Shown here piece after piece: positions 828 through 21,042 of a stretch of 50,076 nucleotides of DNA. Source of the DNA: an uncultured Actinomycetes bacterium (GTDB taxonomy: Bacteria > Actinomycetota > Thermoleophilia > UBA2241); assembly GCA_963709345.1 (NCBI GenBank), contig CAVPVX010000005.1, positions 1 to 50,076 of the forward strand. The letters are read 5' to 3'. The position numbers and the translations under genes were made by a program. The notes beneath the pieces are model-generated. The model made no database searches. It saw only the letters and a program-made list of their open reading frames with translations, and had not been told where the DNA came from. The first letter of the stretch is position 1, and each line of letters starts with the position of its first letter.

Positions 828-917
828 GCCGCGTGCCCGAGTCGCCGCACGTGGACCCCCCGTCGCGCCAGTCCACTTCACCGAGTGACCCCGAGCGGTC
901 ACACAAAGGAGCCCCTC

Positions 918-7482: not shown

Positions 7483-8754
7483 GTGAGCAGGAGTCAAGGG
7501 AGTCTGGAGTCGCATCTCGAGGAGCGTCGCCGCCACGCCGTCGACTCGTGCACGGCCTGCGGCACCTGTTTCCGCGAGTGCCCGGTGCTCGAGCACCTCG
7601 ACTTCGGCGACCTCAAGCCGGCCGCGGTGCAGGCGCAGATCCGCGCGTTTCTCGACGGCGGCGAGGCGACCGACGCGGTCTTCCGCCGCGTGTTCTCGTG
7701 CATGGGCTGCTACGGCTGCTGCTCGGGCGTCTGCCCGCAGGACCTCGACGTGATGCAGGTGAACGAGCTGGTGAAGGCGCGCTACCGGCGCCTCGGCCTC
7801 GAGTGCGCGGCCTACACGCCGGCCACCGACCCGCAGGCGCCGCAGCGCGTCGTCGCCAGCATCCAGGCGACCCCGGACGAGTACCGGCGCATCTTCACCG
7901 CCTCGCCGCAGCGGCCGGCGCGCTTCGTCTTCTTCGCCGGCTGCAACGTCTACAGCCAGCCGGCGCGCCTGCTCGAGGCCCTCGACGTGCTCGCGCTCCT
8001 CGACGACGACGTCGCCTTTCTCCCCGGTCTCGACCACTGCTGCGGCGACACGCCGCTGTTCATGGGCGACCCCGATGAGGCCGCCCGCGTCATGGACGAC
8101 CTGGTGGCCGCGATCGCCGCCTACGAGCCCGAGGCAGCCGTGTTCTGGTGCCCGACCTGCCTGTGCCGCGCACACACGACCGTTTCGGAGGCGTACCGGC
8201 TGCCGTTCGCTACGCTGTCGCTGCCGCAGTTCCTGGCCGCCCGTCTCGAGCAGCTCGACTTCACGCAGCCGTTCGCGGCCAGGGCTACCGTCCACGACGC
8301 CTGCAAGATCGCGCTCACGGGCCTCGACGCCGACGGCCCGCGGCCGCTGCTGGCGAGCGTCCCGGGTCTGGAACTCGTGGAGATGGAGCGCACCGGGGCT
8401 GAGGCGGCGTGCTGCGGCTCCGGCGCCTTCACCTGGGTCCCCTCCGTCGGCGACGAGGTCCGCGACGAGCGGCTCGCCGAGGCGAGCGGCACCGGCGCCG
8501 ATACGCTGATCGACGTCTGCCATTACTGCCACCACGTGTTCCTGCCGGAGGCCGCGCGGTTCGACCTCGCCTGTGAGAACTGGATCCACGTGCTCGCGCG
8601 CTCGCTCGGCGTCGCGCGCGAAGACGACTACGCAGCCTGGCGGCGAAGTGCGGACCCGGAGCTCGTGATCGCCGCAGCGGCGGACCGCTTCGCCTCGTCA
8701 CCGTTCGACCGCGAGACCATCGAGAACGTCGTTCTCGCCCACTTCGGAAGCTGA
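7483..8754 (+). CDS. Fe-S oxidoreductase with 4Fe-4S dicluster and CCG domains (HdrD/GlpC-like)
   Basis: Motifs CTACGTC..ECP, CMGCYGCCSGVCP, FFAGC, HCCG, CPTC, HDAC, CCGSG and CHYC. Confidence 0.8.
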   Translation: MSRSQGSLESHLEERRRHAVDSCTACGTCFRECPVLEHLDFGDLKPAAVQAQIRAFLDGGEATDAVFRRVFSCMGCYGCCSGVCPQDLDVMQVNELVKARYRRLGLECAAYTPATDPQAPQRVVASIQATPDEYRRIFTASPQRPARFVFFAGCNVYSQPARLLEALDVLALLDDDVAFLPGLDHCCGDTPLFMGDPDEAARVMDDLVAAIAAYEPEAAVFWCPTCLCRAHTTVSEAYRLPFATLSLPQFLAARLEQLDFTQPFAARATVHDACKIALTGLDADGPRPLLASVPGLELVEMERTGAEAACCGSGAFTWVPSVGDEVRDERLAEASGTGADTLIDVCHYCHHVFLPEAARFDLACENWIHVLARSLGVAREDDYAAWRRSADPELVIAAAADRFASSPFDRETIENVVLAHFGS

Positions 8755-9032
8755 TCGCGGCCGCAGAGGGCCCGGCACGGGACGTGCCGCTGGCCGCCTC
8801 ACGGCTGGAGAGGCCGCCGCAGTACGCCAGTTGGCCAGCATCCCGGCTCCATGGTCTCATCGCACGCTCACGAACTCCGATGCGGCGACGGAGCAGTGGA
8901 GGCGACGTCGGTAGGTACAGGCGACGAGTCCATGGCTGCCCCGAAGGACTGGCTGACCATTGACCCGCCCAGCTCGAGCCAGAGAGCCTGAAGAACTGTC
9001 CGACTTCCCCCGAAGGTCCGGGAGCCGTGACG

Positions 9033-9320
9033 ACCGCGAGGACCAGCAGCCGAGAGGCGCCGCGTGCCGTCCCCTGCAAGTTGCTAAGAAGCTGCTGATT
9101 CTGCAGGGAACTGCAGGCTAGACCACGCACCGCGGGCGCCGCTATCGAGCAGGATTGACCCGTTTTGGCCTCAGAAGCACCCAAACAGCACCCTGGAGTG
9201 CGGATTTAGGAAACCTGTGCTCTATCCACTGAGCCACGAGGGCATTATGCCGATTTGCAGGAGTTTTTCCTCTGCGGCGACTCGGCAAGACTACCAGAGT
9301 TGCGAAATCTGCAGGAAACG
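9033..9320. repeat. attP-like integration site, copy 1 (homologous to 13174-13476)
   Basis: Shares blocks with copy 2 (GAGAGGCGCCGCG..GCAAGTTGCYAAGAAG..TGCTGATTCTGCAGG, the tRNA half, GCCGATTTGCAGG, AATCTGCAGGAAACG). Four YTGCAGG motifs flank the tRNA-derived core. Confidence 0.7.
9205..9243 (-). pseudogene. 5' half of tRNA-Arg(CCT), att core, copy 1
   Basis: The minus strand reads GCCCTCG TG GCTC AGTGGATA GAGC A CAGGT TTCCTAA A: acceptor 5' strand, D arm and anticodon loop with CCT. There is no 3' half or T arm. Confidence 0.8.
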
Positions 9321-9497
9321 TGCGGCGGGACCGGCGGCGCGGTGGTCAGAGCAGGTGAACGCGCAGGCCAAGAGCGGCTGCGGGAAGGGTCAGTTAGGGC
9401 GGCCAGCGAGCGCCGGGCATGTGCGCGACGGTTGGGCGTCCGTGCCCCGGGGTACGCTCCGGCGCAGCAAGATCGGCCGAGGAACGGAGTCGGGTCG

Positions 9498-10193
9498 ATG
9501 AGCGACGAGCCGCAGCGGCAGTCCCAGGAGAACAGCATCGCGGACCGGGACCGGTACTCCCTGCCCCTCGACCGCTTCAACGCTTTCTCCGACGGCGTCT
9601 TCGCCATCGCCATCACGCTGCTGGTGCTCGAGATCGCCATCCCAGGCGCGGGCGTCCGCGTGCTGCCGGCGCTGCGGGAGCAGTGGCCCGAGTTCCTCGG
9701 CTACTACATCAGCTTCGCCTTCATCGGCGGCATCTGGATCGCGCACTCCGGCGTGACCAAGCTCATGAAGCTCGGGGACAGCGCATCGTTCGCGCTCAAC
9801 CTGCTGCTGCTGCTCTTCGTCGGCCTGCTGCCCTTCACAACGGCGCTCATGGTCACGCACCTGACGGGAGCGGACGCCGAGATCACGGTGCTGCTCTACG
9901 GCGCGAACCTGCTGCTCGCCTCGACCATGCTCAGCCTGCTCATCCTCTACCTCGCGCAGGAGCCGTCGCTGCTCGTCGACACCATCGCCGAAGGCACGCT
10001 GCGCAGCATCACGCGGCGGCGTTGGACGGCGATCGGGCTGAACGTGCTGGCGATCGCCGTGGCGCTCGTGGCCCCGAAGGCCGCAGTCGGCCTGTACCTC
10101 GCTGAGACGACCTTGCTGCTGGTCATCCCCTTCCTCGGTCTGCGCCGCCACCGTCGGCCGAGATCGGCCGGAAGCGGCGGTCAGAGCAAGTGA
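9498..10193 (+). CDS. TMEM175-family (DUF1211) potassium channel
   Basis: Signature RFNAFSDGVFAIAITLLVLE, W..H, LLPFTT and several TM helices. GGAG precedes ATG 9498. Confidence 0.85.
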   Translation: MSDEPQRQSQENSIADRDRYSLPLDRFNAFSDGVFAIAITLLVLEIAIPGAGVRVLPALREQWPEFLGYYISFAFIGGIWIAHSGVTKLMKLGDSASFALNLLLLLFVGLLPFTTALMVTHLTGADAEITVLLYGANLLLASTMLSLLILYLAQEPSLLVDTIAEGTLRSITRRRWTAIGLNVLAIAVALVAPKAAVGLYLAETTLLLVIPFLGLRRHRRPRSAGSGGQSK

Positions 10194-10212
10194 TCGAGAA
10201 GCACCGAAAGGG

Positions 10213-10914
10213 CTAGCGGCGGCGAGTGGCGAGCGCGACGACGTTGTCGAAACTGGGTCCAGCATCCTCGGCGACCTTCTCTTCGGCGCGCGCCAGTGCC
10301 GCGCGCGTGACCTCGTCGAGCCCCGCCACCGCTCTCGCGCGCGCGGCCGTCGTGAGCCGCACGCAGTGCCTGAGCGTGGTCGCCGGGTCGGAGTGCCCGA
10401 GCCACTCCTGCGCCTGCTTCACGCCGTAGGTTTCGTACACCCAGGTGCCGAACGAGTCGCGCAGGCCGTGGATCGGCAGGTGCGGGTCGATCCTCTGGCG
10501 GGCGACCCAGCTCCACCACTGGCTCTTGACGGTGGAGGGCGCCATCTGCGTGCCCTCCTTCTTGGGGACGACGCGGCCGGCCTCGTTCCAGGCCGGGCCC
10601 TGGGCCAGGCGGTACTCCTTCTGTGCCGCGAGCCAGACGCGCAGGCGGTCGGGGTCGATGGAGCGGTGCGCCTCGAGCTCGGCGATCCATGTCTCTAACA
10701 GTCGCTCGGCGGCCTTCTTGCCCTTCGCCTCGACGACCTTGGTGGTCTTCGGGTACTTCTGCTTCTGCCTGCCCTTCGAGTCGAGCACTGGCTGCCTGTC
10801 CCGGTCGAACGCAGGCTCGGGAGGCAGGTTCACCCACAGCTGCCAGCGGCCGCGCACGGGGACGCCGTTCTTCTTCACGGGGTAGACGAAGCCGGTGAGG
10901 CGGAAGGGGTCCAT
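10213..10914 (-). pseudogene. Phage-type tyrosine integrase remnant 1 (internal deletion; catalytic Tyr changed to Cys)
   Basis: An N-terminal arm-binding-like region (GRWQLWVNL..KKAAERLL) is joined near 10650 directly to box II (HGLRDSFGTW..QEWLGHSDPATTLRHC). Box I and the core-binding domain are missing. Confidence 0.75.
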
Positions 10915-11086
10915 GGCGCGACACTATCGCGCCGGTCGGAGGGAATCTGCGCCCGGCCGACTCGCGCCGGCCGCTCTCGCTTCCGCGCCTCGTGGGGGAA
11001 AGGCAGTCTGCCTTTCGCGCACCTTCAGGCTCGTGATAGCGTCATATGCAGAAAGCGGGAGTCTGTGTCGATGACAAGCACAGACT

Positions 11087-11104
11087 GTCTAATTGTTGTT
11101 AGCC
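11087..11104 (+). other. attI-like site at the start of the cassette array
   Basis: GTCTAAT-TGTT-GTTAGCC is an imperfect L box plus an R box. GTTAGCC is the exact complement of GGCTAAC (R'') at the end of cassette 1. No attC hairpin precedes it. Confidence 0.5.
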
Positions 11105-11191
11105 CCAACACCCCCATCGTCATCTGTGAGCCGCTGGCCCGCGGCGGTACAATGAAGGCACTTGCTTGGGCCACCGGGAGGTGTGACGCGA

Positions 11192-11416
11192 ATGACCATC
11201 GACGAGTTGCGCCGCGAGGCCCTCGGCCTCGACCTCTCCAGTCGTGCCCGTCTCGCGCACGAGCTGATCAACAGCCTCGATGACCTCTCCGAAGCCGAGA
11301 TCGAGCAGCTCTGGCTCGAGGAGTCGCAGCGGCGCCTCGAAGAGGTCGCGTCCGGCGCCGTCGAGACCGTGAGCGCCGAAGAGGCCCTGGCCAAGGCGCG
11401 CGCCGCTCGCCGATGA
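11192..11416 (+). CDS. Putative addiction-module antitoxin (TIGR02574-like)
   Basis: EALGLDLSSRARLAHELINSLD..W..E..RRLEE..SG. GGAGG RBS, a TACAAT -10 at 11148-11153, and an ATGA overlap with the toxin. Confidence 0.8.
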   Translation: MTIDELRREALGLDLSSRARLAHELINSLDDLSEAEIEQLWLEESQRRLEEVASGAVETVSAEEALAKARAARR

Positions 11417-11709
11417 GCCGCTCTCTGCGGCTCCACCCGGCAGCCCAGCGTGAACTCGACGAGTCAGCTGCCTACTACGACGCCGAGAGCCCGGGCCTCG
11501 GCAGCGCCTTCCTCAGCGAGTTCGAGCACGCGCTGCAGCAGATCCGTGCGTTTCCCGAGGCGGCGCCCGTGGGCCTCGGGTCGGTGCGCGTCCGCGTCCT
11601 TGTAGCGTTTCCCTACTCGCTGCACTACGCGCTGCTCGGCGACGCCGTCCTCGTGCTCTCCCTGGCGCACCACAGCAGGCGACCTTTCTACTGGCGTGAT
11701 AGGCAGTAG
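11413..11709 (+). CDS. RelE/ParE-family toxin
   Basis: LHPAAQREL.E...YYD...PGLG..F, FPYSL.Y and LAHHSRRP.YWR.R; paired with the upstream antitoxin. Confidence 0.85.
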   Translation: MSRSLRLHPAAQRELDESAAYYDAESPGLGSAFLSEFEHALQQIRAFPEAAPVGLGSVRVRVLVAFPYSLHYALLGDAVLVLSLAHHSRRPFYWRDRQ

Positions 11710-11719
11710 GCCGGTGGGT

Positions 11720-11809
11720 GGCTAACAAGCGGATCAAGCTGGCTCGCCGCAGCGCCGGCGGCTTCAAGGGAAGCCGCGGCGCTCGCAGCCTATCCGCGGT
11801 GCGTTGACT
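11720..11809 (+). other. attC site 1 (90 bp)
   Basis: R'' GGCTAAC, then AAGCG, L'' GATCAAGC with an extra C, a central GCGGCTTC/GAAGCCGC hairpin, L' GCCTATC and R' GTTGACT. Confidence 0.8.
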
Positions 11810-11855
11810 AGGTTCAGTCCCCCAGCGTTCGCTGTTGCCGGTACGTGGTGAGGAG

Positions 11856-11885
11856 CGTACACTCTTCTGTACAGTAACCTGTACC
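11856..11885 (+). promoter_or_regulatory. Phd/YefM-type operator with overlapping -10
   Basis: CGTACA (11856), TGTACA (11868) and TGTACC (11880) occur at exact 12-bp spacing upstream of the antitoxin RBS. TACACT lies at 11858-11863. Confidence 0.65.
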
Positions 11886-11896
11886 AGGAGGCCGTG

Positions 11897-12175
11897 ATGC
11901 AGCCCCTCAGGCTCGATGAGGATATCCGCCCACTGTCCGAGTTCCGCGCCGGCGTCGCTGGCTTCGTGCGCCGCGTCAGCGAGACCCGCCGCCCGCTGCT
12001 GCTTACCCAGCACGGCCGCGGCGTCGCCGTGCTCGTCGACGTGCGCGAGTTCGAGGCGATGCGCGAGCGCCTGGCCCTGTTCGAGGACGTCACCGCCGCC
12101 GAGGCCGACGTCGCCGCCGGGCGCCTCACGTCCCACGACGAGGCCAGGGCCCGCGTCCTTGGGGACCTCGGGTAG
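11897..12175 (+). CDS. Phd/YefM-family antitoxin
   Basis: DIRPLSEFRA..RRPLLLTQHGRGVAVL. AGGAGG RBS. Confidence 0.85.
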   Translation: MQPLRLDEDIRPLSEFRAGVAGFVRRVSETRRPLLLTQHGRGVAVLVDVREFEAMRERLALFEDVTAAEADVAAGRLTSHDEARARVLGDLG

Positions 12176-13008
12176 TGAGGCTCGCCTGGACCGACCGGGC
12201 GCTCGGGCGCGTGCGCGAGACGGCGCGCCATATCGCCGCCGACGATCCCGCCGCCGCGGTGCGCTGGGCGGAGGGACTCTTCGACGCGGTCGGGCGTCTC
12301 GCCGACTTCCCCGAAAGCGGGCGCCTCGCGCCGGAACTCGAGGACCGAGGCGTGCGCGAGCTCGTCTACGGCGCCTACCGCGTCTTCTACCGCATCGACG
12401 CAGGCACGGTCCTCATCCTCACCGTCAGGCACGCAAGCCAACTGGTCCGCGAGGACGAGGTCGATCAAGGACGAGCCGAACAAGCCATTCCAGCGGACGC
12501 GCTGAATTCAGACGTTGGATGGAAGGCAAGGGTTTCGATGCAGCAAGTCGTCAGTGTCGAGTCGCTATGGTCCGCATTTCTGTCAGCGCACCCGGAACTC
12601 GTCAGTCAGGACGACGTCTACTCGGCGTGGCACTTCTGCGACAACAAGTCAGACGCTGAGGAGTTGGCGCAGCTTGTCGTTGCCGGGGTCAAGCGCGCTA
12701 CCGCCGGCGACCTGTGGTCATATGAGGCAGAAGGGGAGCCACTTCCACGGCCGGGCGATTTCAGCGTGATCACCGATTGGGACGGCAACGCGCGCTGCAT
12801 CATCCGCACCGTGTCAGTCGAGGTCGTCGCATTCCAAGATGTGAGCGACCTTTTCGCTTCAACGGAGGGTGAGGGCGACGGGTCGCTCGCGTACTGGCGC
12901 GAGGCGCATTGGGCGGCGTTCAGCCGCTCGCTTTCGGGAATCGGTCGTGAGCCTTCACTGGACATGCCGGTCGTGTGCGAGGTCTTCGAGGTCGTCTTCG
13001 CGGGGTGA
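12175..13008 (+). CDS. RelE/ParE toxin (to ~12470) reading in frame through attC2 into the ASCH domain
   Basis: MRLAWT..A, LADFPESGR.APE, RELVYGAYRVFYR and ILTVRHA, with no stop before the ASCH region. Confidence 0.7.
   Translation: MRLAWTDRALGRVRETARHIAADDPAAAVRWAEGLFDAVGRLADFPESGRLAPELEDRGVRELVYGAYRVFYRIDAGTVLILTVRHASQLVREDEVDQGRAEQAIPADALNSDVGWKARVSMQQVVSVESLWSAFLSAHPELVSQDDVYSAWHFCDNKSDAEELAQLVVAGVKRATAGDLWSYEAEGEPLPRPGDFSVITDWDGNARCIIRTVSVEVVAFQDVSDLFASTEGEGDGSLAYWREAHWAAFSRSLSGIGREPSLDMPVVCEVFEVVFAG
12475..12520 (+). other. attC site 2 (46 bp, minimal)
   Basis: GCCGAAC AAGCC ATTCCAGCG GACG CGCTGAAT TCAGAC GTTGGAT matches the canonical R''-5bp-L''(extra C)..L'-6bp-R' layout. Confidence 0.8.
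12538..13008 (+). CDS. ASCH domain protein (own ATG within cassette 3)
   Basis: AWHFCD..A.ELAQLV.AG.KRAT, GD.SVITDWDG..RCII.T, EGEGDGSL.YWR.AH and VVCE.FEVV. Confidence 0.8.
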   Translation: MQQVVSVESLWSAFLSAHPELVSQDDVYSAWHFCDNKSDAEELAQLVVAGVKRATAGDLWSYEAEGEPLPRPGDFSVITDWDGNARCIIRTVSVEVVAFQDVSDLFASTEGEGDGSLAYWREAHWAAFSRSLSGIGREPSLDMPVVCEVFEVVFAG

Positions 13009-13063
13009 TGATTCGCAACCGCCGACGTGCTGCGAGATTCCGGGACGCAACTTGGCCGGTCCC

Positions 13064-13150
13064 ATCCAGCAAGCGCATCGAGCTGAAGGCGTCAGGCCAG
13101 AATCATCCCGAAGCGCATGTGCCGCAGCTCACGCGCAAAACACGCTAGCT
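13064..13150 (+). other. attC site 3 (variant core AGC/GCT)
   Basis: ATCCAGC AAGCG CATCGAGCTG .. CAGCTCACGCGC AAAACAC GCTAGCT. CCATCCAGC complements the cassette start GTTGGATGG (12514) at 8 of 9 positions. Confidence 0.7.
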
Positions 13151-13173
13151 GGAAGGGGAATCCGCCGGCCACC

Positions 13174-13476
13174 GCCGCGACAGCTAGCAGGCGAGAGGCG
13201 CCGCGGGTCGTCCCCGGCAAGTTGCCAAGAAGGTTGCTGATTCTGCAGGAGACTGCAGGCTCGAACAGGCTCTCGGCGCCGGCGGACTGTCGCCAAACGA
13301 CCCCAAATCACCCTCGAAGTACCCCGATCGGCACCCCAGGCTGCGGATTTAGGAAACCTGTGCTCTATCCACTGAGCTACGAGGGCATTGTGCCGATTTG
13401 CAGGGATTTCTCCGCTGCGGCACTTCGGCAAGAATACCACGAGTTGCGAAGAAGTTGCTGAAATCTGCAGGAAACG
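13174..13476. repeat. attP-like integration site, copy 2
   Basis: Homologous to 9033-9320. A ~30-bp direct repeat AGTTGCNAAGAAG(G)TTGCTGA(A)WTCTGCAGG lies at 13220-13249 and 13442-13471, on both sides of the tRNA half. Confidence 0.7.
13348..13386 (-). pseudogene. 5' half of tRNA-Arg(CCT), att core, copy 2
   Basis: The minus strand reads GCCCTCGTAGCTCAGTGGATAGAGCACAGGTTTCCTAAA, and similarity to tRNA stops right after the anticodon loop. Confidence 0.8.
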
Positions 13477-14263
13477 CCTCGCCAGCAAGCCCGTGCTTCC
13501 ACAGATAGGCGATGCTGGCCAGCGCCGTTCCAACCTCGCCATGTTCAAGGATTACCGTAGCCTCCGCTCTTCTGGCAACGGTAAGCACGGTGAGGGCGTC
13601 GACGATCCCGTCACCGAGGCAGCGATGAGGATCTCGCTCCTCGGTTGGGCCGGCGTTGCTATGCAGATGAACGTGCACGAGCCTCGCTCGAGGATTCGTC
13701 AGGAACGGGTCCAGAGTGCCGCAGATGGCAGCATGACCCGTGTCGAGCACCAACCCGATCTCGCCGAGGTCGAGGTCTCCAGGTGCGGTGAACCTCCATG
13801 CAGCGCCCGTCGTCATGTTCTCGACCGCCACCTGCACGCCACTCGACGCCTGGACTTCCTCCAGGTCACGCAGGCTTCGCTCAAGCGCTCGCCGCCCCGC
13901 GACACATGGAACGCCCTGTGATCCTCGGTCAGGATGCACGACGTAGCATTGAGCGCCGATCGCAGCAGCTGCCTCAGCATGACGGCGATGGGCTTCAATC
14001 GTGCGATGCCTCTCCGACTCCTCGGGGCTGGCCGGGTCAAACGCGGGCCCGTAGGGACCATGGACGGTGAACGCAAGGCCACTCTCACGCGCCGCGCGAC
14101 GGTTATCGGGCGAGAGCAGCGTGTGGAGGCCGACCGCGTCGACCTCAACCAGACTGCTCCAGCGCGCAAGCAGCATCAGCGCCTCGCGTAGTTGCTTCTC
14201 AGCGTAGACCTGGCTCGGCAGTCCGATGTCGGCCGGCAGCCTCTGTCCGTCGGCGAGAGGCAT
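13349..14263 (-). CDS. Sugar phosphate isomerase/epimerase (xylose-isomerase-like TIM barrel); 3' end runs into the att repeat
   Basis: Motifs TVHGP, VVHP, VAVENM, LDTGHA, HVHLHSN..DPH..LGDG and VILE. Confidence 0.75.
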   Translation of the reverse strand: MPLADGQRLPADIGLPSQVYAEKQLREALMLLARWSSLVEVDAVGLHTLLSPDNRRAARESGLAFTVHGPYGPAFDPASPEESERHRTIEAHRRHAEAAAAIGAQCYVVHPDRGSQGVPCVAGRRALERSLRDLEEVQASSGVQVAVENMTTGAAWRFTAPGDLDLGEIGLVLDTGHAAICGTLDPFLTNPRARLVHVHLHSNAGPTEERDPHRCLGDGIVDALTVLTVARRAEATVILEHGEVGTALASIAYLWKHGLAGEAFPADFSNFFATRGILAEVPQRRNPCKSAQCPRSSVDRAQVS

Positions 14264-14308
14264 GGATTCAGGCTGCCGGCCGCCGGAGTGCTACGTCGCG
14301 CGCCTCCG

Positions 14309-14779
14309 TCAGGACGGCTTCAACGGATCATCGTGCGGCGTGCCCAGGAAGAGGCCCTTGGACGAACCCTCGGCCCTGGGCAGATCGTCAGTGATCTCGT
14401 AGTAGTCGCTCGCCTCGCTGAGCCAGATGTGGCCAGCGCCCTTGATGCCCGTGGGCGGGTCGACGCTCCCCGCCGAGATGTAGACGTACTCGTAGCCCTG
14501 AGGATCCCAGACGACGCTCGAGCCGCACTCCGAACAGAAGCCGCGTTGCACGCCCGGCGTCACGTCTTTGTCGGTGTGGTACCACTTGAGCGTGCGGCTC
14601 TCGGTGATGCTGAGGTCCTCACGCCGAGCCGATGTGTACGCGGAGAAGTTGCCGTGCGTGCGGCGGCAGTTCTCGCAGTGGCAGTAGAGGATGTCCCGAA
14701 GGGGACCGTTCACCTCATACTTGACGCCTCCGCACAGGCAACTGCCGGTGGCCTTCAGCACGCTGGATTCGGTCGACAT
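14309..14779 (-). CDS. GFA (CENP-V/Mss4-like) family protein
   Basis: GSCLCGGVKY, CHCENCRR.HG, RGFCSECGS and HIW. GGAGG RBS. Confidence 0.85.
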   Translation of the reverse strand: MSTESSVLKATGSCLCGGVKYEVNGPLRDILYCHCENCRRTHGNFSAYTSARREDLSITESRTLKWYHTDKDVTPGVQRGFCSECGSSVVWDPQGYEYVYISAGSVDPPTGIKGAGHIWLSEASDYYEITDDLPRAEGSSKGLFLGTPHDDPLKPS

Positions 14780-14845
14780 CCGTTTCCTCCTCCGGTCGAT
14801 AGCGCTTCCCTTCGCTACTGAAGTATTCGAGTCGTTTCCAGTCAG

Positions 14846-14863
14846 GTCAATGACGTGATTGAC
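14846..14863. promoter_or_regulatory. Candidate operator in the GFA/DeoR divergent promoter
   Basis: Inverted repeat GTCAAT-N6-ATTGAC in an AT-richer intergenic stretch. Confidence 0.45.
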
Positions 14864-14917
14864 TGAACATGAGTGTTTTGCTGAGTCTTCCGTCAGCACC
14901 TGAGAAGGGAAGCGATC

Positions 14918-15700
14918 ATGGAACGCAAGGAGGGGCGCGTCGTTGCGGAGGAGCGTCGGCGCCGGATCGAGGAACTGCTGAGGCGTCAGGCGGTGGCGTC
15001 CGTGTCCGACATCATGGACGCCACCGGAGCCAGCGAGGCGACCGCGCGGCGTGATCTTGCCCTGCTCGAGCGCCTCGGCCTGCTTGCCCGAACGAGAGGG
15101 GGAGCGCGGGCGGTCCAGCGCCACTCGACCCTGGAGGAGGAGTTCGAGATACGGCAGAGCCGCGATCGGCGGGAGAAGCGCCTCATCGCCCAGCGGGCGG
15201 CGACCCTCATCAAGGACGGCATGACCGTGTTCCTCACGGACGGGACCACCTCCTTCGCGCTCGCGCAATGCCTCGTTCACCGGCATCTGACCATCGTGAC
15301 GGGAGCACTGAACATCGCTCAGCTATTGGCCGGCAGTGCGGGCATCGAAGTCATCGTCATCGGGGGTCAGCTGCGTGCGACGTCCTTCGGCACGACTGGA
15401 CCCCTGTCCGTTGACACGATCCGCACCCTTCACGCCGACCTGGCCTTCGTCGCCGCGGATGGAGCCACTCTCGATGGCGGCGTCCGGGACTTCTCGCTTG
15501 AGGACGCAGCGTCCGCTCGAGCGATGAGCGAGAGCTCCTCTCAGACGATCGTGCTCGCCTCACCGGGCAAGCTTGGATTCAACGCTCGCGCGCGGGTGGT
15601 TGGCTGGCCCGAAGTCGACGCCCTCATCACAACCCGGCTCCCGAAAGCTTTCGCCGAAGGCCTTGCGAGGCAAGGCGTCCGAGTCTTGATTGCGGGTTAG
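14918..15700 (+). CDS. DeoR/GlpR-family transcriptional regulator
   Basis: ERRRRI, SEATARRDL..LE..GLL.RTRGGA, EKRLIA..AA and DGTT. Confidence 0.9.
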   Translation: MERKEGRVVAEERRRRIEELLRRQAVASVSDIMDATGASEATARRDLALLERLGLLARTRGGARAVQRHSTLEEEFEIRQSRDRREKRLIAQRAATLIKDGMTVFLTDGTTSFALAQCLVHRHLTIVTGALNIAQLLAGSAGIEVIVIGGQLRATSFGTTGPLSVDTIRTLHADLAFVAADGATLDGGVRDFSLEDAASARAMSESSSQTIVLASPGKLGFNARARVVGWPEVDALITTRLPKAFAEGLARQGVRVLIAG

Positions 15701-15773
15701 ATCGCCTGCCTGATGCTCACGGAAGCGGCAGGAATGCAGCATCAGGCGGCAGTGGAGGAGTCAGCTGGAGACA

Positions 15774-16156
15774 CTACTGACGCCTGCTTTCGAGCGAGAC
15801 GACGTTGTCGAGCACGGGCTGCGCATCCTCGGCGGCCTTCTCCTCGGCGACTTCGAGTGCCGCCCGCGTCACCTCGTCGAGCCCGGCGACTGCCTTCGCC
15901 CGCGCTGCCGTAGTGAGCCGCACGTAGTGCCTGAGCGTGGTCGCCGGGTCGGAGTGCCCGAGCCACTCCTGCGCCTGCTTGACGCCGTACTCCTCGTAGA
16001 CCCAGGTACCGAAGGGGTCGCGCAGGCCGCGGATCGGCAGGTGCGGGTCGATCCTCTGCCGCGCCACCCAGTTCCACCAGTGGCTCTTCAGGGTCGAGGG
16101 CGCCATCTGGGTGCCCTCCTTCTTGGGGACGACGCGAGCGGCCTCGTTCCACGCAC
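15774..16156 (-). pseudogene. Tyrosine integrase remnant 2 (C-terminal only; box II His changed to Arg)
   Basis: AWNEAARVVPKKEGTQMAPST..IRGLRDPFGTW..LGHSDPATTLRHY; nearly identical to the C-terminus of remnant 1. Confidence 0.75.
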
Positions 16157-16212
16157 GCCCTTCGCGAGACAGTGCTCCTTCAGAGCGGAGAGGCAGGCGG
16201 CTAGCCACCTCA

Positions 16213-16242
16213 TTGACACCCCCCCCCAAAAAAGTCTAGGTT
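16213..16242 (+). promoter_or_regulatory. Sigma70-type promoter with a homopolymer spacer
   Basis: TTGACA-N18-TAGGTT; the spacer contains C9 and A6 runs. Confidence 0.55.
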
Positions 16243-16304
16243 GGCTGGGGGGAGAACACCCACACCGAGGGGATGCTGCCGACGCGGCGGCGGGAAGTGG
16301 AGCC

Positions 16305-19274
16305 ATGGCCGGATCTGGGGCAAGCAGTGATCCGAAGGCGGCCGGTGCTGTGCCTCTGAACCCTACCTTCGGCGACTGGCTTGAGCGTCGCGGCGCGTCG
16401 GAAAAGGGTGAGGCGGGTCCGCGGGACGGAGCACGCGGCGCAGGCGACCTGCCCTGCGTGCTGGTCGTGGACGACGAGACCGAGATCACCGCCTCCGTCG
16501 CTGAACTGCTGCGCGACGAGTACGCGGTTTTGACGGCGAGTTCAGCCGACGAGGCGCTGGCACTCCTCGAGGAGCACGCCGTCGCGGCGATCCTCACCGA
16601 CCAGCGCATGCCCGGCGGCAGCGGCGCCGAGCTGCTCGAGCGCGCACTCCACATCGCGCCTGAGACGACGCGCATCCTGTTCTCCGGCTACTCGGACATC
16701 AGCGTCGTGGTCGACGCCGTCAATGAAGGACAGGTCTTCCACTACCTGGCCAAGCCCTGGCGCCCCGAGGAGCTGCGGGAAGTGCTCGGGCGCGGCGTCG
16801 AGCGTCACCAGATTCTGCTCGAGAACCGGGCTCTCACCGCCGAGCGCGAGGCAGCACTGCGTGACTTGCACCAGAGCGAGGCTCACTACCGCACCCTCGC
16901 CGAAGCCTCGCCGGACATGGTCTACGTCATCGGCCATGATGACACGGTGCAGTACCTGAACCAGAGGGCGGCCGAGACGGTTCGCCGCTCCCCAGACGAA
17001 GTCGTCGGCATGCCGCGCGCCGACCTTTTCGGCGGCGCGACGGACAGCGGGATGAAGGCTGCCCTTGACGACGTCCTTCAGGCGGGAGAGCCGCGCCACT
17101 CCGAATCTGAGCTGGTCTGCCCGTCGGGGAGGACATGGATCAGCACCTGGCTCGTTCCGCTCAAGGACGTGGACGGCGCCGTGACGGCGGTGCTCGGCAT
17201 CTCGCGCGACATCAGCGAGGACAAGCGCGCCAAGGACGAACTGCGCAAGCGGGCCACGGAGATGGCTGCGCTGCACGCCCTGAGCGCGGCCGCCACGCGA
17301 AGCCTGTCGCTGGAAGGGGTCGCGTCAGAAGCCACAGCGGCGCTGGCGAAGATCATCGGGTGCGACCTGGCACTCGTCTTCATCCGGGACGGAGAGCGTC
17401 TGCTGCTGACGGGCACCGCCCCGGGGTACCGCAAGGCAGAACGCGAGGAGGCGCCCGAGCATCGCGTCGGCGAGTGCCTGTGCGGACTGGCGGTCCGGGA
17501 GGGCGCGCCCATCTACTCCCGCGACCTCTTCAGCGACGAGCGCTGCACGCTGGAGGAGTGTAAGCAGGCCGGCCTGCGCTCCTTTGCCGCCCTGCCGCTG
17601 TACACCGGCGACGAGATCATCGGCGCGGTCGGCGTGGCGTCGGAGACGGAGTGCGACTTCGAGGCGCAGGCCGCGTTCCTCGAGACGCTGGCGAGCGAGG
17701 TCGCCCTGCACGCGCACAATGCCCAGCTGTTCTCCGCGGTCGAGTGGCAGCGTGAGGCACTTCGCGAGCGCGAGGTCGCCCTTGCAAACGCGCAACGCAT
17801 CGCGCACCTCGGCAGCTGGAACTGGGACGCGGCGTCAGGGGAGATCATCTGGTCCGCGGAGGCGTGCCGGATCTTCGGGGTCGCGGCAGACACGCACCCT
17901 GCGCAGGAGGCTTTCATCGACTTCATCCACCCGGACGACCGGAGACTCATGGGGGAATGGATCTCCGCAGCTCGTGGCGGGTCGGCGCCGCCGGGCATCG
18001 AATGTCGCATTCTCCGCCCCGATGGAGAGCTTAGATGGATCTTCAGTGACGGGGAAGCCTCGTCGGAGGAGGCAGGCGCCGTCACCCGCGTCGCCGGGAC
18101 CGTGCTCGACGTCACCGAGCGCAAGCAGGCCGAGGAGATGCTGAAGGCGAGCCAAGAGCGGCTCGAGGAAGCACACCGTCTGGCGCACATTGGGATCTGG
18201 ACCTGGCGGGTCGCCGACGATACCGTCACCTGGAGCGAGGAGCTCTACCGCATCGCGGGCCGCGACCCGAGCTCGCCGGCTCCCACCTACGCCGAGCACC
18301 CCGACCTCTATGCCCCAGAGAGCTGGGACCGTCTGCAGGCGGCGGTCGCGCAGGCATGTGAGCGCGGCACAGACTACGAACTCGATCTTGAAATGATGCG
18401 CCCTGACGGCACCATCCGATGCGTGCACGTCTTCGGCGGCGCCACACGAAACGAGCGCGGAGAGGTCGAAAACCTCTACGGCACCATCCAGGACATCACC
18501 GAGCGCATGCAAGCCGAGGACGAGATCCGTCGCCTCAACGCCGAGCTCGAGGAGCGCGTCGTCCGCCGCACCGAACAGCTCGACGCGACGACCCGTGAGC
18601 TCGAGGCGTTCGCCTACTCTGTGGCCCACGATGTACGCGCGCCGCTGCGCACCATCGATGGCTTCAGCGCCATGGTGATGGAGGACGAGCGCGAGCGGCT
18701 CAGCCCGGAGGGACAGGCGGAACTCAGCCGGGTGCGCGTCGCGGCGCAGACGCTGGCGCGCCTGCTCGACGACCTCATGGGGCTCTCTCGCGTCTCACGC
18801 CACGAGCTCGTCCGCGAAGCAGTCGACCTGAGCGCCCTGGCGCGGCAGGTGGGCGAGGAGACAGCCGCGGGATCGCCGTCGCGCCGGGTCGAGCTCACCG
18901 TGCAGCCCGAGCTTGAAGCTGTCGCCGACCCGGCACTGGTGCGTCTGATCCTGCGCGAGCTCCTTCGCAACGCCTGGAAGTTCACGAGCCGGCACGAGAC
19001 CGCGTGCATCGAGGTCGGCGCGACCGAGGCCGGGGGCGAGGCCGCCTTCTATGTGCGCGACGACGGCGCCGGCTTCGATATGCGCCACGCCCAGCATCTC
19101 TTCGGCGCCTTCCAGCGCATGCACCCGGCAGGGGAGTTCGAGGGCGACGGGATCGGCCTCGCCACGGTGCAGCGGCTGGTGCGCCGGCACGGCGGCCGCG
19201 TCTGGGCCGAAGCCGAGGTCGAGAAGGGCGCGACGTTCCACTTCACGCTGCCGGAGCCGGCAACCGACGGCTAG
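16305..19274 (+). CDS. Multi-sensor histidine kinase (REC-PAS-GAF-PAS-PAS-HisKA-HATPase); exact start uncertain
   Basis: LVVDDE..TDQRMP..KPW, PAS/PAC repeats, GECLCG GAF, YSVAHDVRAPL H-box, NAWKFT, DDGAGF and GIGLA. Confidence 0.85.
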   Translation: MAGSGASSDPKAAGAVPLNPTFGDWLERRGASEKGEAGPRDGARGAGDLPCVLVVDDETEITASVAELLRDEYAVLTASSADEALALLEEHAVAAILTDQRMPGGSGAELLERALHIAPETTRILFSGYSDISVVVDAVNEGQVFHYLAKPWRPEELREVLGRGVERHQILLENRALTAEREAALRDLHQSEAHYRTLAEASPDMVYVIGHDDTVQYLNQRAAETVRRSPDEVVGMPRADLFGGATDSGMKAALDDVLQAGEPRHSESELVCPSGRTWISTWLVPLKDVDGAVTAVLGISRDISEDKRAKDELRKRATEMAALHALSAAATRSLSLEGVASEATAALAKIIGCDLALVFIRDGERLLLTGTAPGYRKAEREEAPEHRVGECLCGLAVREGAPIYSRDLFSDERCTLEECKQAGLRSFAALPLYTGDEIIGAVGVASETECDFEAQAAFLETLASEVALHAHNAQLFSAVEWQREALREREVALANAQRIAHLGSWNWDAASGEIIWSAEACRIFGVAADTHPAQEAFIDFIHPDDRRLMGEWISAARGGSAPPGIECRILRPDGELRWIFSDGEASSEEAGAVTRVAGTVLDVTERKQAEEMLKASQERLEEAHRLAHIGIWTWRVADDTVTWSEELYRIAGRDPSSPAPTYAEHPDLYAPESWDRLQAAVAQACERGTDYELDLEMMRPDGTIRCVHVFGGATRNERGEVENLYGTIQDITERMQAEDEIRRLNAELEERVVRRTEQLDATTRELEAFAYSVAHDVRAPLRTIDGFSAMVMEDERERLSPEGQAELSRVRVAAQTLARLLDDLMGLSRVSRHELVREAVDLSALARQVGEETAAGSPSRRVELTVQPELEAVADPALVRLILRELLRNAWKFTSRHETACIEVGATEAGGEAAFYVRDDGAGFDMRHAQHLFGAFQRMHPAGEFEGDGIGLATVQRLVRRHGGRVWAEAEVEKGATFHFTLPEPATDG

Positions 19275-19275
19275 C

Positions 19276-19445
19276 TATTCGAGTTCACGACGTTGTTGAC
19301 AGGTGAGGGCCTGTCCTGATCGGTTGTTGGTGTCCAAACCAAGACCGAGAGGAAGGCCCTCATGTCGCATCCTAGCGCGAGACTCGCCACGCACGGACGC
19401 CTGCTGCTCTGTGAGCGTCTCGATGAAGGCGGCTGGCGCGTCGGA
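19276..19445 (+). mobile_element. IS481-family left-end remnant
   Basis: MSHPSARLATHGRLLLCERL.EGGW from ATG 19362 resembles IS481 transposase N-termini. An end-like sequence T(A)TTCGAGTTCACGACGTTGTTGACA follows CTAG. It is fused to integrase remnant 3. Confidence 0.6.
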
Positions 19446-19915
19446 GTGGCCGAGCCACTCCTGCGCCTGCTTGACGCCGTACTCCTCGTAGACCCAGGTG
19501 GCGAAGGGGTCGCGCAGCCCGTGGATCGGCAGGTGCGGGTCGATCCTCTGGCGGGCGACCCAGCTCCACCACTGGCTCTTGACGGTGGAGGGCGCCATCT
19601 GCGTGCCCTCCTTCTTGGGGACGACGCGAGCGGCCTCGTTCCACGCCGGGCCCTGGGCCAGGCGGTACTCCTTCTGCGCGGCGAGCCAGACGCGGCGCTC
19701 GTCGCAGGCCGCCGCGGCAGCGGCGCGGTGCGCGCCTTGCCGTTCTTCGGCGGGTACTCGAGGAGCGTGCCGTCGTCGTCCTCCTCGACGGTGCGACAGA
19801 CGGTGACGAAGCCGCGCTCGAGGTCGAGGTCCGACCAGAGGAGGCCCGCGACCTCCCCCACGCGCAGGCCGGAGAAGCCGGCGAGCACGCCGGCGGCGTG
19901 GACCAGCAGGCCGCA
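19440..19915 (-). pseudogene. Tyrosine integrase remnant 3 (box I to box II, frameshifted, no catalytic Tyr)
   Basis: SGLRVGEVAGLLWSDLDLERG.VTV..PKNGKART, a frameshift near 19722, then HGLRDPFATW..LGHSD, truncated by the IS481 piece. Confidence 0.75.
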
Positions 19916-20024
19916 GACCCCCCCGGATGAGTTGCAGGAGGCGCCTTGGGCGGGGGAGTATGCTCGCGAAGGCGATGGTGGGCTTGGGGTCGAGTGACCG
20001 CCAGCCCTGATTGGACCGAGTCGC

Positions 20025-20801
20025 ATGAGCACCGCATTGCGCGCGCTGGTCTTCGATGTGGACGGGACCCTGGCCGACACCGAGCGTGACGGCCATCGCG
20101 TCGCGTTCAACAAGGCCTTCGCCGCCGCCGGACTGGACTGGCACTGGTCGGTGGACCTGTACGGGGAACTGCTCGAGGTCACCGGCGGCAAGGAGCGTAT
20201 CCGCCACTATCTTCAAGTGCACCGGCCCGCTGTCGAGACGAGCGTCGGCACCGACGCCGGCATCGCCGCCTTGCACCTGGCCAAGAACCGCTTCTACGGG
20301 GAGCTGGTGGCGACCGGCGCCGTGCCGCTGCGGCCGGGCGTCAAGCGCCTGTTGCTCGACGCGCGTGCGGCGGGTCTGCGACTCGCGATCGCGACGACCA
20401 CGTCGATGGAGAACGTCACCGCATTGCTGGAGCATTGCATCGGTCCCGGAGCGGAACGCTGGTTCGACGTGATCGGCGCCGGCGACGTCGTGCCCGCGAA
20501 GAAGCCGGCGCCGGACATCTACCGCTTCGTCCTCGAGGCTCTGCGTCTTCGTCCCGAGCGCTGCCTGGCGCTCGAGGACTCAGGCGCCGGTCTGCGCGCG
20601 GCGCGAGCGGCCAAGCTGCCGACCTTGGTGACCGTCGGCGACTACACGGCGGATGACGATCTGCACGGCGCGGCTGTGGTGCTCGATCACCTCGGTGAAC
20701 CCGAGCTGCCGGTACGCGTGCTGGCCGGCGATCTGGGCGACTCGACCTACGTGGATGTGGACGCGCTGCGCACCCTGCACGCTCGTCAGAGCCAGACGTG
20801 A
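20025..20801 (+). CDS. HAD-IA hydrolase, CbbY-like
   Basis: FDVDGTLADTERDGHRVAFN, GGKERI, IATTT, KKPAPDIY and EDS..GL. Confidence 0.85.
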   Translation: MSTALRALVFDVDGTLADTERDGHRVAFNKAFAAAGLDWHWSVDLYGELLEVTGGKERIRHYLQVHRPAVETSVGTDAGIAALHLAKNRFYGELVATGAVPLRPGVKRLLLDARAAGLRLAIATTTSMENVTALLEHCIGPGAERWFDVIGAGDVVPAKKPAPDIYRFVLEALRLRPERCLALEDSGAGLRAARAAKLPTLVTVGDYTADDDLHGAAVVLDHLGEPELPVRVLAGDLGDSTYVDVDALRTLHARQSQT

Positions 20802-21042
20802 GCCGCCGGCCAGGGCTCTGACGCAGATGGTCGCCGCGTGGTCCTGCGTCCCGCGGAGTTGGCAGGATTCCCGCCGCTTCCTGATGTGTGTGAGCGCAGG
20901 CCGCGGCAGGGATGCCCGGAGTGGCAGCCACGCACCCCTGACCATTGACGCCGGCCGCCTAAGACGCAAACATAAGGCGAGCGGTCGGGGGCGAACGCTC
21001 CCCGGCCACAGTCAATGGGGGACTTGGTTAGGGGGAATGATC

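Follow-up and report, generated by a model that had tools for sequence, protein, structure and literature searches.

The stretch of 50,076 nt analysed here (the window) very probably carries a tandem array of decayed small tyrosine-integrase islands, which belong to one family and have integrated in reverse orientation at the anticodon loop of tRNA-Arg(CCT). The most unusual feature of the array, unremarked in an earlier note on this DNA, is the presence of the 5' half of the tRNA gene instead of the usual 3' half; it reflects an uncommon orientation of a well-known process, and neither a new kind of element nor a new mechanism. Pairwise alignment, continuous over both, showed that two att-like blocks of about 290 nt (9033-9324 and 13174-13480) are genuine repeats, and a repeat search of the window gave 84-86% identity in three pieces (9034-9091 with 13175-13232, 9093-9128 with 13235-13270, and 9180-9296 with 13323-13439). 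Three integrase remnants are repeats as well, and all integrase pieces and both tRNA halves lie on the minus strand, so that the repeats and the single orientation described in the earlier note were confirmed. The following features were identified:

7483-8754, plus strand: CCG/4Fe-4S protein gene (Pfam CCG and Fer4)
9033-9204, minus strand: Y1, element end past the crossover point, aligned with Y2 and 19 other junctions
9205-9243, minus strand: displaced 5' half no. 1 of tRNA-Arg(CCT), nt 1-39, 1 mismatch to the 39-nt consensus of relatives
9244-9324, minus strand: X1, unit A's copy of the tRNA-upstream block (38 upstream regions aligned)
9498-10193, plus strand: TMEM175-family channel gene, unit A cargo between integrase and X (Pfam PF06736, 1.4e-22, in ORF 9255-10193; start codon uncertain)
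10213-10914, minus strand: integrase remnant 1, 233 aa, in which residues 1-90 of a 433-aa protein are fused to 292-433
11162-11709, plus strand: toxin-antitoxin pair 1, unit A (Pfam Unstab_antitox 11162-11416, ParE 11413-11709)
11894-13008, plus strand: toxin-antitoxin pair 2, unit A (Pfam PhdYeFM 11894-12175; ParE-ASCH ORF 12175-13008)
13174-13347, minus strand: Y2, upstream end of unit A (alignment; arm-like motif 13220-13248)
13348-13386, minus strand: displaced 5' half no. 2 of tRNA-Arg(CCT), 0 mismatches to the consensus
13387-13480, minus strand: X2, tRNA-upstream block of unit B, both GCAACT repeats present (13442-13470)
13481-15772, mixed strands: unit B cargo, isomerase-like, GFA and DeoR (Pfam)
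13349-14263, minus strand: xylose-isomerase-like TIM barrel (Pfam), in an ORF reaching 13349
within 14309-15286, minus strand: GFA (Pfam)
14918-15700, plus strand: DeoR (Pfam)
15774-16229, minus strand: integrase remnant 2, residues ~305-433 only, catalytic Tyr retained
16458-19274, plus strand: hybrid histidine kinase with receiver, PAS, GAF, PAS, HisKA and HATPase domains (Pfam; start uncertain, ORF opens at 15927)
19275-19436, plus strand: unrelated sequence replacing the 3' end of integrase 3
19437-19914 (limits approximate), minus strand: integrase remnant 3, residues ~219-397 in two reading frames (frameshift)
20025-20801, plus strand: HAD hydrolase gene (Pfam)

Each block consists of X (about 95 nt), the first 39 nt of the tRNA gene, which end in the anticodon loop, and Y, an element end of about 170 nt. 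X corresponds to the sequence found upstream of tRNA-Arg(CCT) in relatives. The alignment of the first 5' half with the intact tRNA genes of nine loci diverges after CCTAAA, and sequence comparison placed the divergence at the same point in all junctions. Y1 contains an arm-like motif, CTGCAG...GCAGCT...GCAACT, at 9079-9106, and in X1 one of the two GCAACT repeats is gone through a 12-nt deletion, the remaining motif lying at 9298-9314.

A search for relatives, which the earlier note had proposed, revealed 36 related loci in public genomes, mostly MAGs labelled Thermoleophilia, and thus a family; among the genomes searched, it was found almost only in MAGs labelled Thermoleophilia or Actinomycetes. 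A haloarchaeal origin, at first considered because of the GC content, was discarded in view of the protein and genome searches. In 17 of the 36 loci an intact tRNA-Arg(CCT) lies at the position of the half in the window, downstream of the 433-aa integrase and on the same strand, and displaced 5' halves stack upstream of it. This combination implies a rare reverse-orientation integration at the anticodon loop. Twenty-nine of the 41 integrase copies that bear a C-terminus are followed by a tRNA-Arg 5' half 595-5797 nt downstream, never on the opposite strand, and within the DNA stretches examined the other 12 had no 5' half downstream, a point against the integration model proposed below. Junctions in which a 5' half passes into Y were counted 21 times, against 17 intact tRNAs, and in all loci that hold both (L016, L020, L021, L026 and L032; 5/5) they are located on the upstream side of the tRNA and share its orientation. 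The start of X is sharp in all but three of the upstream regions (35/38), and the arm motif of Y was recognized in 18 of the 21 junctions. The displaced 5' halves are 98% alike on average, with 14 of 20 equal to the consensus. Successive 5' halves are spaced by about 2.5 to 8.2 kb in the loci and in the window, arrays of two to three junctions are common, and Pfam content differs among units, which bears out the small units with different cargo, stacked in tandem at a tRNA-derived site, that had been described from the window.

The conservation of X and the 5' half at orphan junctions might also be expected if the blocks were structured small RNA genes that begin as a tRNA half and are driven by a tRNA promoter in X. 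We regard this as highly improbable, since Rfam returned no match (8000-21000, E<=1), RNAalifold on 16 junctions gave no convincing structure (210 columns, -17.4 kcal/mol, covariation term only -0.84), the first 105 nt of Y are merely 58% alike, and scans of both blocks for sigma-70-type promoters and terminators were empty.

For integration of the islands at the tRNA gene, we propose that the free element would carry an attP composed of X, the tRNA 5' half (nt 1-39) and Y. X, about 95 nt from upstream of the tRNA, would contain two GCAACT repeats, and Y, of about 150-190 nt, another pair of repeats; the repeats may serve as integrase-binding sites. Recombination in the 7-nt anticodon loop would join X and the 5' half of the element to the resident 3' half, and an intact tRNA would be regenerated, now with an element-derived upstream region, while the resident upstream region and 5' half would be pushed to the far end, where they would adjoin Y. 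With every later insertion, whether into the tRNA or into one of the older junctions, a unit would be added in the order Y, (often) toxin-antitoxin genes, integrase, cargo, X and 5' half. Since no sigma-70-type promoter was found in X, we can only infer that X would supply the promoter. It is a more daring, and in our estimate unlikely, extension of this model that the X, 5' half, Y blocks are live sites, that the array is a tRNA-anchored gene-capture platform and that the newest element sets the upstream region of the host tRNA-Arg(CCT). In that case, units without an integrase (unit A; the CCG-MerR unit of L021) would enter, leave and change places at any junction through the action of any family integrase present, and the newest element would control the expression of the host tRNA-Arg(CCT) via the upstream region it had supplied.

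ARAGORN predicted no tRNA gene in the window, whereas the regenerated intact tRNA is present in 17 of the related loci. Within the 50 kb of the window, at least, the array is thus a remnant from which the functional end is missing. The tRNA end expected from the model is absent from the window array, an observation that stands against the model. In L007, which shares a junction with the window at 95% identity, no tRNA was found in the stretch examined either.

The order of a recombination unit given above assigns positions 9205-13347, including the toxin-antitoxin genes, to unit A, and the module limits drawn in the earlier note are consequently out of phase. Y of block 1 is already part of the following unit, the one with the CCG gene, so that the nest reaches left of 9033, and the CCG gene, as the first gene of the unit starting with Y1, is not a neutral chromosomal flank. 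In L021, a 2.4-kb unit (Y, CCG, MerR, X) without any integrase contains this CCG gene (86% nt identity) as well as a MerR gene; it is bordered by a displaced 5' half at 11983 and by the intact tRNA-Arg at 14458. The two toxin-antitoxin pairs and the ASCH domain, which the earlier note did not mention, sit between integrase 1 and block 2; according to the translation, ParE of pair 2 reads through into the ASCH domain as a single ORF (12175-13008). Pair 1 has a 76% nt match in L023, adjoining an integrase piece, and the TMEM175 gene has an 84.65% nt match in L019, together with an integrase piece. Unit A has both ends, but its integrase is dead; in unit B the upstream end is missing together with two thirds of the integrase gene, and of the third unit only a middle piece of the integrase is left beside the HAD gene. 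The HAD gene is likely the upstream border of the array; its counterpart in L021 (92.6% nt match) is likewise next to an integrase remnant. The hybrid histidine kinase is flanked by two integrase remnants and had no nt match in any related locus, and no att half or arm motif was found near the kinase or the third integrase, as had been noted for this module. Its kinase and integrase remnant hold, whereas an IS481 scrap found no support: the plus-strand ORF start at 19362 bears what we take to be a resemblance to an IS481 transposase N-terminus, but NCBIfam as well as tblastn and blastn searches against plasmids were all empty.

All three integrases of the window are judged dead, as previously suggested, from their deletions, a frameshift and an exchange of the catalytic Tyr for Cys. 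The exchange affects remnant 1 (translation and alignment), which is still recognized as Pfam Phage_integrase at 8.4e-09. The homology of remnant 2, which is 82-91% identical to the integrase of L020, stops at about 16202, and remnants 1 and 2 are both without the catalytic R and K. Remnant 3 has lost the N-terminus and the Tyr region, and its nt sequence matches at least 20 loci over 19437-19914. Pfam Phage_integrase was detected in the window ORFs 10213-10914, 15774-16229, 19275-20435 and 19271-20191. A 271-nt integrase core is common to 10371-10641, 15932-16202 (79%) and 19424-19694 (92%), and copies 1 and 2 also match at the 3' end (10230-10529 with 15791-16090, 86%). A tree of the 270-nt core from 32 copies is star-like, with 19 of 29 inner branches unsupported, a bootstrap that had not settled and only weak pairing (82/90) of copies 2 and 3 from the window; the order of insertions can therefore not be derived from it.

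Blocks and integrase cores that are 79-92% identical within one 11-kb stretch might in principle go back to one local duplication of a segment or to a repeated element that was misassembled, an outcome confined to this locus that the earlier note had named as an alternative. This explanation has almost no probability left and is already contradicted, since entirely different cargo separates the repeats, the deletions in the three integrase remnants end at different points, the same architecture recurs in many independent assemblies, and individual junctions are common to the window and L007, L020 and L021 at 86-97% nt identity.

The integrases of relatives reach Pfam Phage_integrase scores of up to about 1e-22. 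The full-length protein of 433 aa was matched in one piece in 9 of the 36 loci, and an integrase ORF passing all six motif checks is present in five, so that the family as a whole cannot be called non-autonomous, as the earlier note had done. Eight full-length alignment rows retain the R, K, H-x-x-R, H and Y positions, with one exception: in L004, the KNGKAR motif has Asn in place of its middle Lys. The numbers of broken integrases counted in the loci should be treated with caution, because frameshifts in MAG assemblies may be sequencing errors, and a first protein search, which spanned 128-408 aa only and left out the 433-aa form, gives no ratio of whole to broken copies. The family integrase shares at most 31% identity with any phage or plasmid integrase searched. 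A Pfam search for an arm-binding domain in the N-terminal 87-100 residues returned nothing relevant, and an AlphaFold2 model from a 10-row alignment (mean pLDDT 55, pTM 0.29) was too poor for a fold search. In this model residues 1-82 (block means 56-77) form three strands and then a helix, presumably the layout of arm-binding domains.

Could the units of the window still be mobile? They might be non-autonomous mini-islands, att-flanked and without an integrase, that an intact integrase elsewhere in the genome continues to move, one at a time or jointly. Unit A retains both ends, the 2.4-kb unit of L021 is bounded by a displaced 5' half and the tRNA, the 5' halves are strongly alike, and comparable elements are described as CIMEs, i.e., elements with the integrase lost and both att sites kept, in PMC5704250. 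However, X of unit A is short of one of its two repeats, units B and 3 are without an upstream site, and the likeness of the 5' halves is equally explained by the need to match the tRNA on arrival, which makes such mobilisation rather unlikely. As intact integrases are common in the family, units without integrase are most simply decay products.

Comparison with the closest loci allowed us to locate breakpoints. Between the window and L020, homology runs through the 5' half and breaks just after the anticodon-loop CCTAAA, where L020 continues as an intact tRNA. The DeoR-GFA-isomerase block is about 99.6% identical to L020 11196-13495 (10 mismatches in 13473-15772), whereas the flanks of this 2.3-kb cargo block are only 75-91% identical, and the exchange has its breakpoints away from the anticodon-loop core, about 60 nt within the 3' end of the integrase gene on one side and about 20 nt within X on the other. 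Such near-identical cargo points to a recent exchange by homologous recombination, and it is quite probable, as part of the whole explanation, that cargo moves among family members by homologous recombination in the conserved integrase 3' end and X. The same exchange, together with the block-bounded unit without integrase in L021, could be read in favour of an integron-like cassette platform at the tRNA, with X, 5' half and Y as cassette sites and cargo shuffled by any family integrase. This is improbable, as the breakpoints lie off the core and fit homologous recombination, the integrase scored only 28.6 bits where the integron-integrase cut-off is 265, and most units have their own integrase or its remnant. 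Returning to tandem accretion of islands, the window and L007 share 93-95% identity left of Y, in Y (94% for Y1) and in the 5' half, compared with 76.5% in X (X1) and 30% beyond it. They are alike in the unit nearest to the expected tRNA and differ upstream, which is the reverse of the pattern predicted from insertion solely at the tRNA, and the model would thus need insertion or replacement at internal junctions.

Both 5'-fragment islands and tandem accretion of decayed islands are already published. Zhao and Williams reportedly described in 2002 (J Bacteriol 184:859) tRNA-gene islands with a 5' tDNA fragment and reverse target orientation, and Pavlovic in 2004 and Bellanger in 2011 are said to have described CIMEs and tandem accretion of ICE/IME-type islands. 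According to the Islander database, islands with a 5' tDNA fragment are a minority (159 of 3919), and 125 tandems of two or more, only four of them of three or more, were found among the 3919 islands (PMC4383910); 5'-distal recombination is called 'considerably less frequent' in PMC6563490. Such islands share with ours the displaced tRNA fragment and regenerated tRNA that mark the ends, the position of the fragment upstream of and co-oriented with the tRNA, a crossover centred on the anticodon loop and the occurrence of tandem arrays. They differ in that the family has an apparently undescribed integrase lineage and a carried block that reaches about 95 nt beyond the tRNA 5' end, and in that arrays of two to three junctions are common here compared with the Islander set. 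The CIME model, as given in PMC5704250, comprises decay to att-flanked elements followed by accretion; as here, the integrase is lost while att sites are kept, new elements enter an att site holding the target gene end and form tandems, and composite structures are common. In the cases covered there, 3' gene ends and conjugative or mobilisable elements of Firmicutes are concerned, whereas our arrays grow on the 5' side and no conjugation, relaxase or phage genes were found among 73 ORFs of six loci, up to 14 kb upstream of the tRNA or junction. Unlike in ICEs or AICEs, conjugation or replication genes were also absent from these ORFs and from 67 ORFs of five array loci; the ORFs had been pre-filtered by GC3, so that small or atypical genes may be missed. 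No excisionase-like gene was seen, and in 14 intervals between integrase and X no conserved small gene (a possible excisionase) was detected, only L004 and L032 being alike; this, too, tells against the proposed model.

Tandem small units with varied cargo and repeated recombination sites between them are also found in integrons, but the NCBIfam integron-integrase models gave only 28.6 bits (cut-off 265) and 15.9 bits (cut-off 435), the sites of our family are about 300 nt long and tRNA-derived and not attC hairpins, and most units have their own integrase. SSV-type and Mx8-type integrases are mentioned in PMC4383910. In these systems the int gene spans attP, and, as here, integrase fragments lie beside tRNA-derived sites in arrays. 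An SSV-type split integrase was ruled out, because the 433-aa integrase is uninterrupted in integrated copies and the 5' halves lie 0.6-5.8 kb (595-5797 nt) away from it; the integrase fragments are therefore deletions and not products of integration.

A literature search yielded no paper that, judged by title or abstract, deals with this integrase lineage, which is apparently undescribed, is carried by many soil-type Actinomycetota MAGs and uses the uncommon 5'-side tRNA integration. The family offers a natural series of intact, frameshifted and deleted elements, att-flanked units without integrase and orphan junctions, in which island decay and cargo swapping can be followed. For annotation, it accounts for orphan tRNA halves and for many 'integrase' proteins of 130-250 aa in these genomes.

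The same tRNA gene is a hotspot from both sides. Five loci (L002, L004, L005, L015 and L032) have a 3' fragment on the downstream side of this tRNA-Arg(CCT), as in classical anticodon-loop islands, which use the same tRNA and the same crossover region but carry the opposite half. The integrases near these 3' fragments are only 26-30% identical to those of the family described here, and in four of these loci the fragment starts within the final bases of the anticodon stem and the loop, L015 being less clear.

The window carries no tRNA gene over its whole length (ARAGORN), and positions 8000-21000 gave no match in Rfam. In this DNA of about 69% G+C, a repeat finder returned a 271-nt core in three direct copies (10371-10641; 15932-16202, 79%; 19424-19694, 92%), a 300-nt repeat pair (10230-10529 vs 15791-16090, 86%) and two blocks of about 290 nt, seen as three adjoining repeat pairs (9034-9296 vs 13175-13439, 84-86%). 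Pairwise alignment showed these blocks to be continuous over about 9033-9324 (block 1) and 13174-13480 (block 2). The gene order, with names from Pfam, is as follows.

7483-8754, plus strand: CCG/Fer4 protein, followed by block 1
between block 1 and integrase piece 1: TMEM175
10213-10914, minus strand: integrase piece 1
11162-13008, plus strand: two toxin-antitoxin pairs and an ASCH domain, followed by block 2
after block 2: xylose-isomerase-like TIM barrel, then GFA, then DeoR
15774-16229, minus strand: integrase piece 2
ending at 19274: hybrid histidine kinase
about 19437-19914, minus strand: integrase piece 3, in two reading frames
20025-20801: HAD hydrolase
after the HAD hydrolase: family-5 solute-binding protein

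The tandem blocks and integrase remnants described in an earlier note, which had read them as small non-autonomous islands of attachment site, cargo and dead integrase, were borne out by the repeat finder, the alignment and Pfam; its gene list had omitted the two toxin-antitoxin pairs and the ASCH domain at 11162-13008.

Alignment with the tRNA regions of nine related loci showed that each block begins with about 95 nt matching the sequence upstream of tRNA-Arg(CCT) (X), continues with tRNA nucleotides 1-39 (the 5' half) and diverges from the intact tRNAs directly after the anticodon-loop CCTAAA. The following sequence (Y) is not the tRNA 3' half, and about 170 nt of it are common to both blocks. 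A scan of the related loci and the window found 17 intact tRNAs and 21 junctions, that is, a 5' half followed by Y. In all but 3 of its 38 copies X has a sharp start and two GCAACT repeats separated by about one helical turn, and 2 further copies, that of block 1 among them, have lost one of the repeats. Y starts with about 100 variable nt, followed in 18 of the 21 junctions by a CTGCAG...GCAACT...GCAACT motif very like that of X. Within the window, such arm motifs are confined to 9079-9106, 9298-9314 (half deleted), 13220-13248 and 13442-13470. With an X motif, a 5' half and a Y motif, each block has the make-up of a complete putative attachment site (arm, core, arm), the core being the anticodon stem-loop. 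Mean likeness over 20 junctions, one in locus L030 with 3 mismatches and odd flanks having been left out of this count, was 98% for the displaced 5' halves, compared with 70% in X and 58% in the initial part of Y; no functional conclusion is drawn from the 98%, since such likeness is expected if a match to the tRNA was required on arrival. Neither a sigma-70-type promoter in X, nor a conserved RNA structure across the junctions, nor a conserved gene between the integrase gene (int) and X was found. The X block of locus L019 (11640-11700) breaks off after its first bases and gives way to unrelated sequence, so that an element may have inserted into this attachment site; the adjoining TMEM175 cargo matches the window at 84.65%.

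From this anatomy we infer a mechanism in which the attP of the element would consist of X, 5' half and Y, with recombination in the anticodon loop. The X and 5' half of the element would become the new front of the tRNA, and the resident front would be moved upstream and joined to Y. The recombination unit would run Y, genes, int, cargo, X, 5' half, and against this order the earlier modules, drawn from attachment block to integrase, had misplaced boundaries. Classical integration, with the 3' half on the element, is unable to give a 5' half joined to non-tRNA sequence, and the splitting of one tRNA could not yield multiple copies of X and the 5' half. A single duplication is contradicted by the differing cargo between the repeats, for which it is unable to account. 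In two comparisons homology breaks at the site. Window 13348-16199 and locus L020 agree at 97% as far as the final base of the 5' half, and a finer alignment fails just past the anticodon-loop CCTAAA, where L020 runs on as an intact tRNA. Identity to locus L007 falls from 93% to the left of Y, 94% across Y1 and 95% across the 5' half to 76.5% across X1 and 30% beyond X.

In the related loci, tRNA-Arg(CCT) was found in 17 of 36, always downstream of the integrase and on the same strand (ARAGORN). For 29 of the 41 integrase copies with a retained C-terminus, a tRNA-Arg 5' half follows at a distance of 595-5797 nt downstream, and the remaining 12 have none in the locus DNA examined; no family copy lies on the opposite strand. 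Five loci possess both junctions and an intact tRNA (L016, L020, L021, L026, L032), and their junctions, up to two before the tRNA, are always upstream of it and co-oriented. Successive 5' halves are spaced by about 2.5 to 8.2 kb. Fragments of the tRNA-Arg(CCT) 3' part occur 1.1-9.5 kb downstream of the intact tRNA in five loci (L002, 14344-14380; L004, 12996-13032; L005, 21405-21441; L015, 17846-17882; L032, 17658-17694), and in four of them the start falls in the final bases of the anticodon stem and the loop, with L015 less clear. Integrases only 26-30% identical to the family lie downstream of the tRNA or near a 3' fragment (L001, L005, L010, L011, L021). The same anticodon loop is therefore used from two sides, the 3' side by classical elements and the 5' side by the family.

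The window array is best explained as a set of tRNA islands that entered the anticodon loop in reverse orientation, accumulated in tandem and decayed; both the island class and accretion with decay are already known. The Islander survey counts 3919 tRNA/tmRNA islands, of which 3760 are marked by a 3' fragment and 159 by a 5' one; 2083 islands are anticodon-centred, and tandems number 125 with at least two members and 4 with at least three (PMC4383910). 5'-distal recombination is described as considerably rarer, and arrays from re-use of one site have been reported (PMC6563490); the CIME model comprises decay to att-flanked, int-less elements and then accretion of new elements (PMC5704250).

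Unit A of the window (9205-13347) consists, towards the tRNA, of Y2, ASCH/ParE/Phd, ParE/antitoxin, dead integrase piece 1, TMEM175, X1 and 5' half 1. Unit B retains X2, 5' half 2, cargo and the last third of integrase piece 2, and its upstream part is lost. Upstream of it lie the kinase gene and the middle piece of integrase 3, adjoining HAD. This border between HAD and an integrase remnant is also present in L021 (HAD gene, 92.6% identity), where it is followed by a junction, Y, the CCG gene, a MerR gene, X and an intact tRNA. From this order, the CCG gene belongs to a further unit, and the nest reaches to the left of 9033, where it had been taken to begin. After the CCG gene, the window and L007 (95% identical) have DHDPS and an aldehyde ferredoxin oxidoreductase where L021 has MerR, X and the tRNA. 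The far left (38-2227, plus strand) also looks decayed and contains gene fragments, namely an MTTB (trimethylamine methyltransferase) domain piece of 120 residues and, in adjacent ORFs, two short stretches of class-III aminotransferase.

All three window integrase pieces, measured against a 433-aa relative (protein alignment and tblastn map), are dead. Piece 1 has residues 1-90 fused directly to 292-433, is devoid of the core-binding domain, the first catalytic Arg and the Lys, and has the Tyr changed to Cys; piece 2 covers about residues 305-433 and nothing more; piece 3 covers about residues 219-397 with a frameshift, its end being swapped for unrelated sequence (19275-19436). The label of IS481 scrap obtained no support, as 19275-19436 had no match in NCBIfam, plasmid tblastn or plasmid blastn; a plus-strand ORF start at 19362 presumably resembles IS481 transposases. 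About 190 nt upstream of integrase piece 1 (10915-11105) are about 83% conserved in L003, L013 and L018, contain a short inverted repeat and may serve as a promoter or operator for int.

Piece 1, used as a query against proteins of 128-408 aa, gave 160 matches at E<=1e-5, many of them fragments, and the sole taxon-bearing source name among them was Thermoleophilia bacterium. One scan of a species-representative genome collection, with the matched proteins aligned as query, yielded the 36 loci, 33 of which come from MAGs labelled Thermoleophilia, Actinomycetes or Actinomycetota. Integrase pieces of the family were also seen in MAGs labelled Deltaproteobacteria and beta proteobacterium (L028, L029), labels that may reflect binning error or transfer outside Actinomycetota. 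Five integrase ORFs pass all six motif checks and a further three of 433-434 aa have one motif variant; the other copies are frameshifted or truncated, and part of the frameshifts may be assembly errors. The earlier interpretation stands for a family, for tandem stacking and for dead local integrases, and fails on module phase and on non-autonomy, since a one-piece full-length integrase match in 9 of the 36 loci makes the family autonomous elsewhere. Identity to the searched phage or plasmid integrases is at most 31%, and only generic tyrosine-recombinase models match. Judged by title or abstract, no paper on Thermoleophilia integrases at tRNA was found. The tree of the integrase core did not resolve, and the structure model was of low confidence.

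Cargo varies by unit, comprising channels, enzymes and regulators (DeoR, TetR, MerR, AraC, sigma factors). L001 carries an arsenic-type set, and L032 (5532-9905) has one gene for KaiC, two for KaiB and one for a PAS histidine kinase, flanked on each side by a displaced tRNA half. Toxin-antitoxin pairs often lie between Y and int (window; L020, DUF433/DUF5615; L016, HigB/HTH). Conjugation, replication, phage or excisionase genes were not found among 140 ORFs scanned, which had been pre-filtered by codon-position GC. Unit B shares its cargo with L020 at about 99.6% identity (10 mismatches in 13473-15772), and the flanks are less alike (3' part of int, 82-91%; proximal X, 75-87%). Because identity changes about 60 nt into int and about 20 nt into X, the sequence bears the signature of a recent double crossover in conserved sequences of the family and not of integrase action at the core.

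The isomerase-like cargo ORF crosses X2 and the tRNA half at 13349-13480 (minus strand), with its stop codon within the anticodon loop, and its final 45 or so codons are probably not real coding sequence. A single 277-aa ORF at 12175-13008 (plus strand) joins a ParE domain (residues 4-90) and an ASCH domain (162-275) with no intervening stop, either by fusion or by a lost stop codon; the ASCH portion may have a start of its own at Met 122 within the ORF. Distant from the array, amid housekeeping genes, a 282-aa ORF (41072-41920, plus strand) includes a PhdYeFM antitoxin domain.
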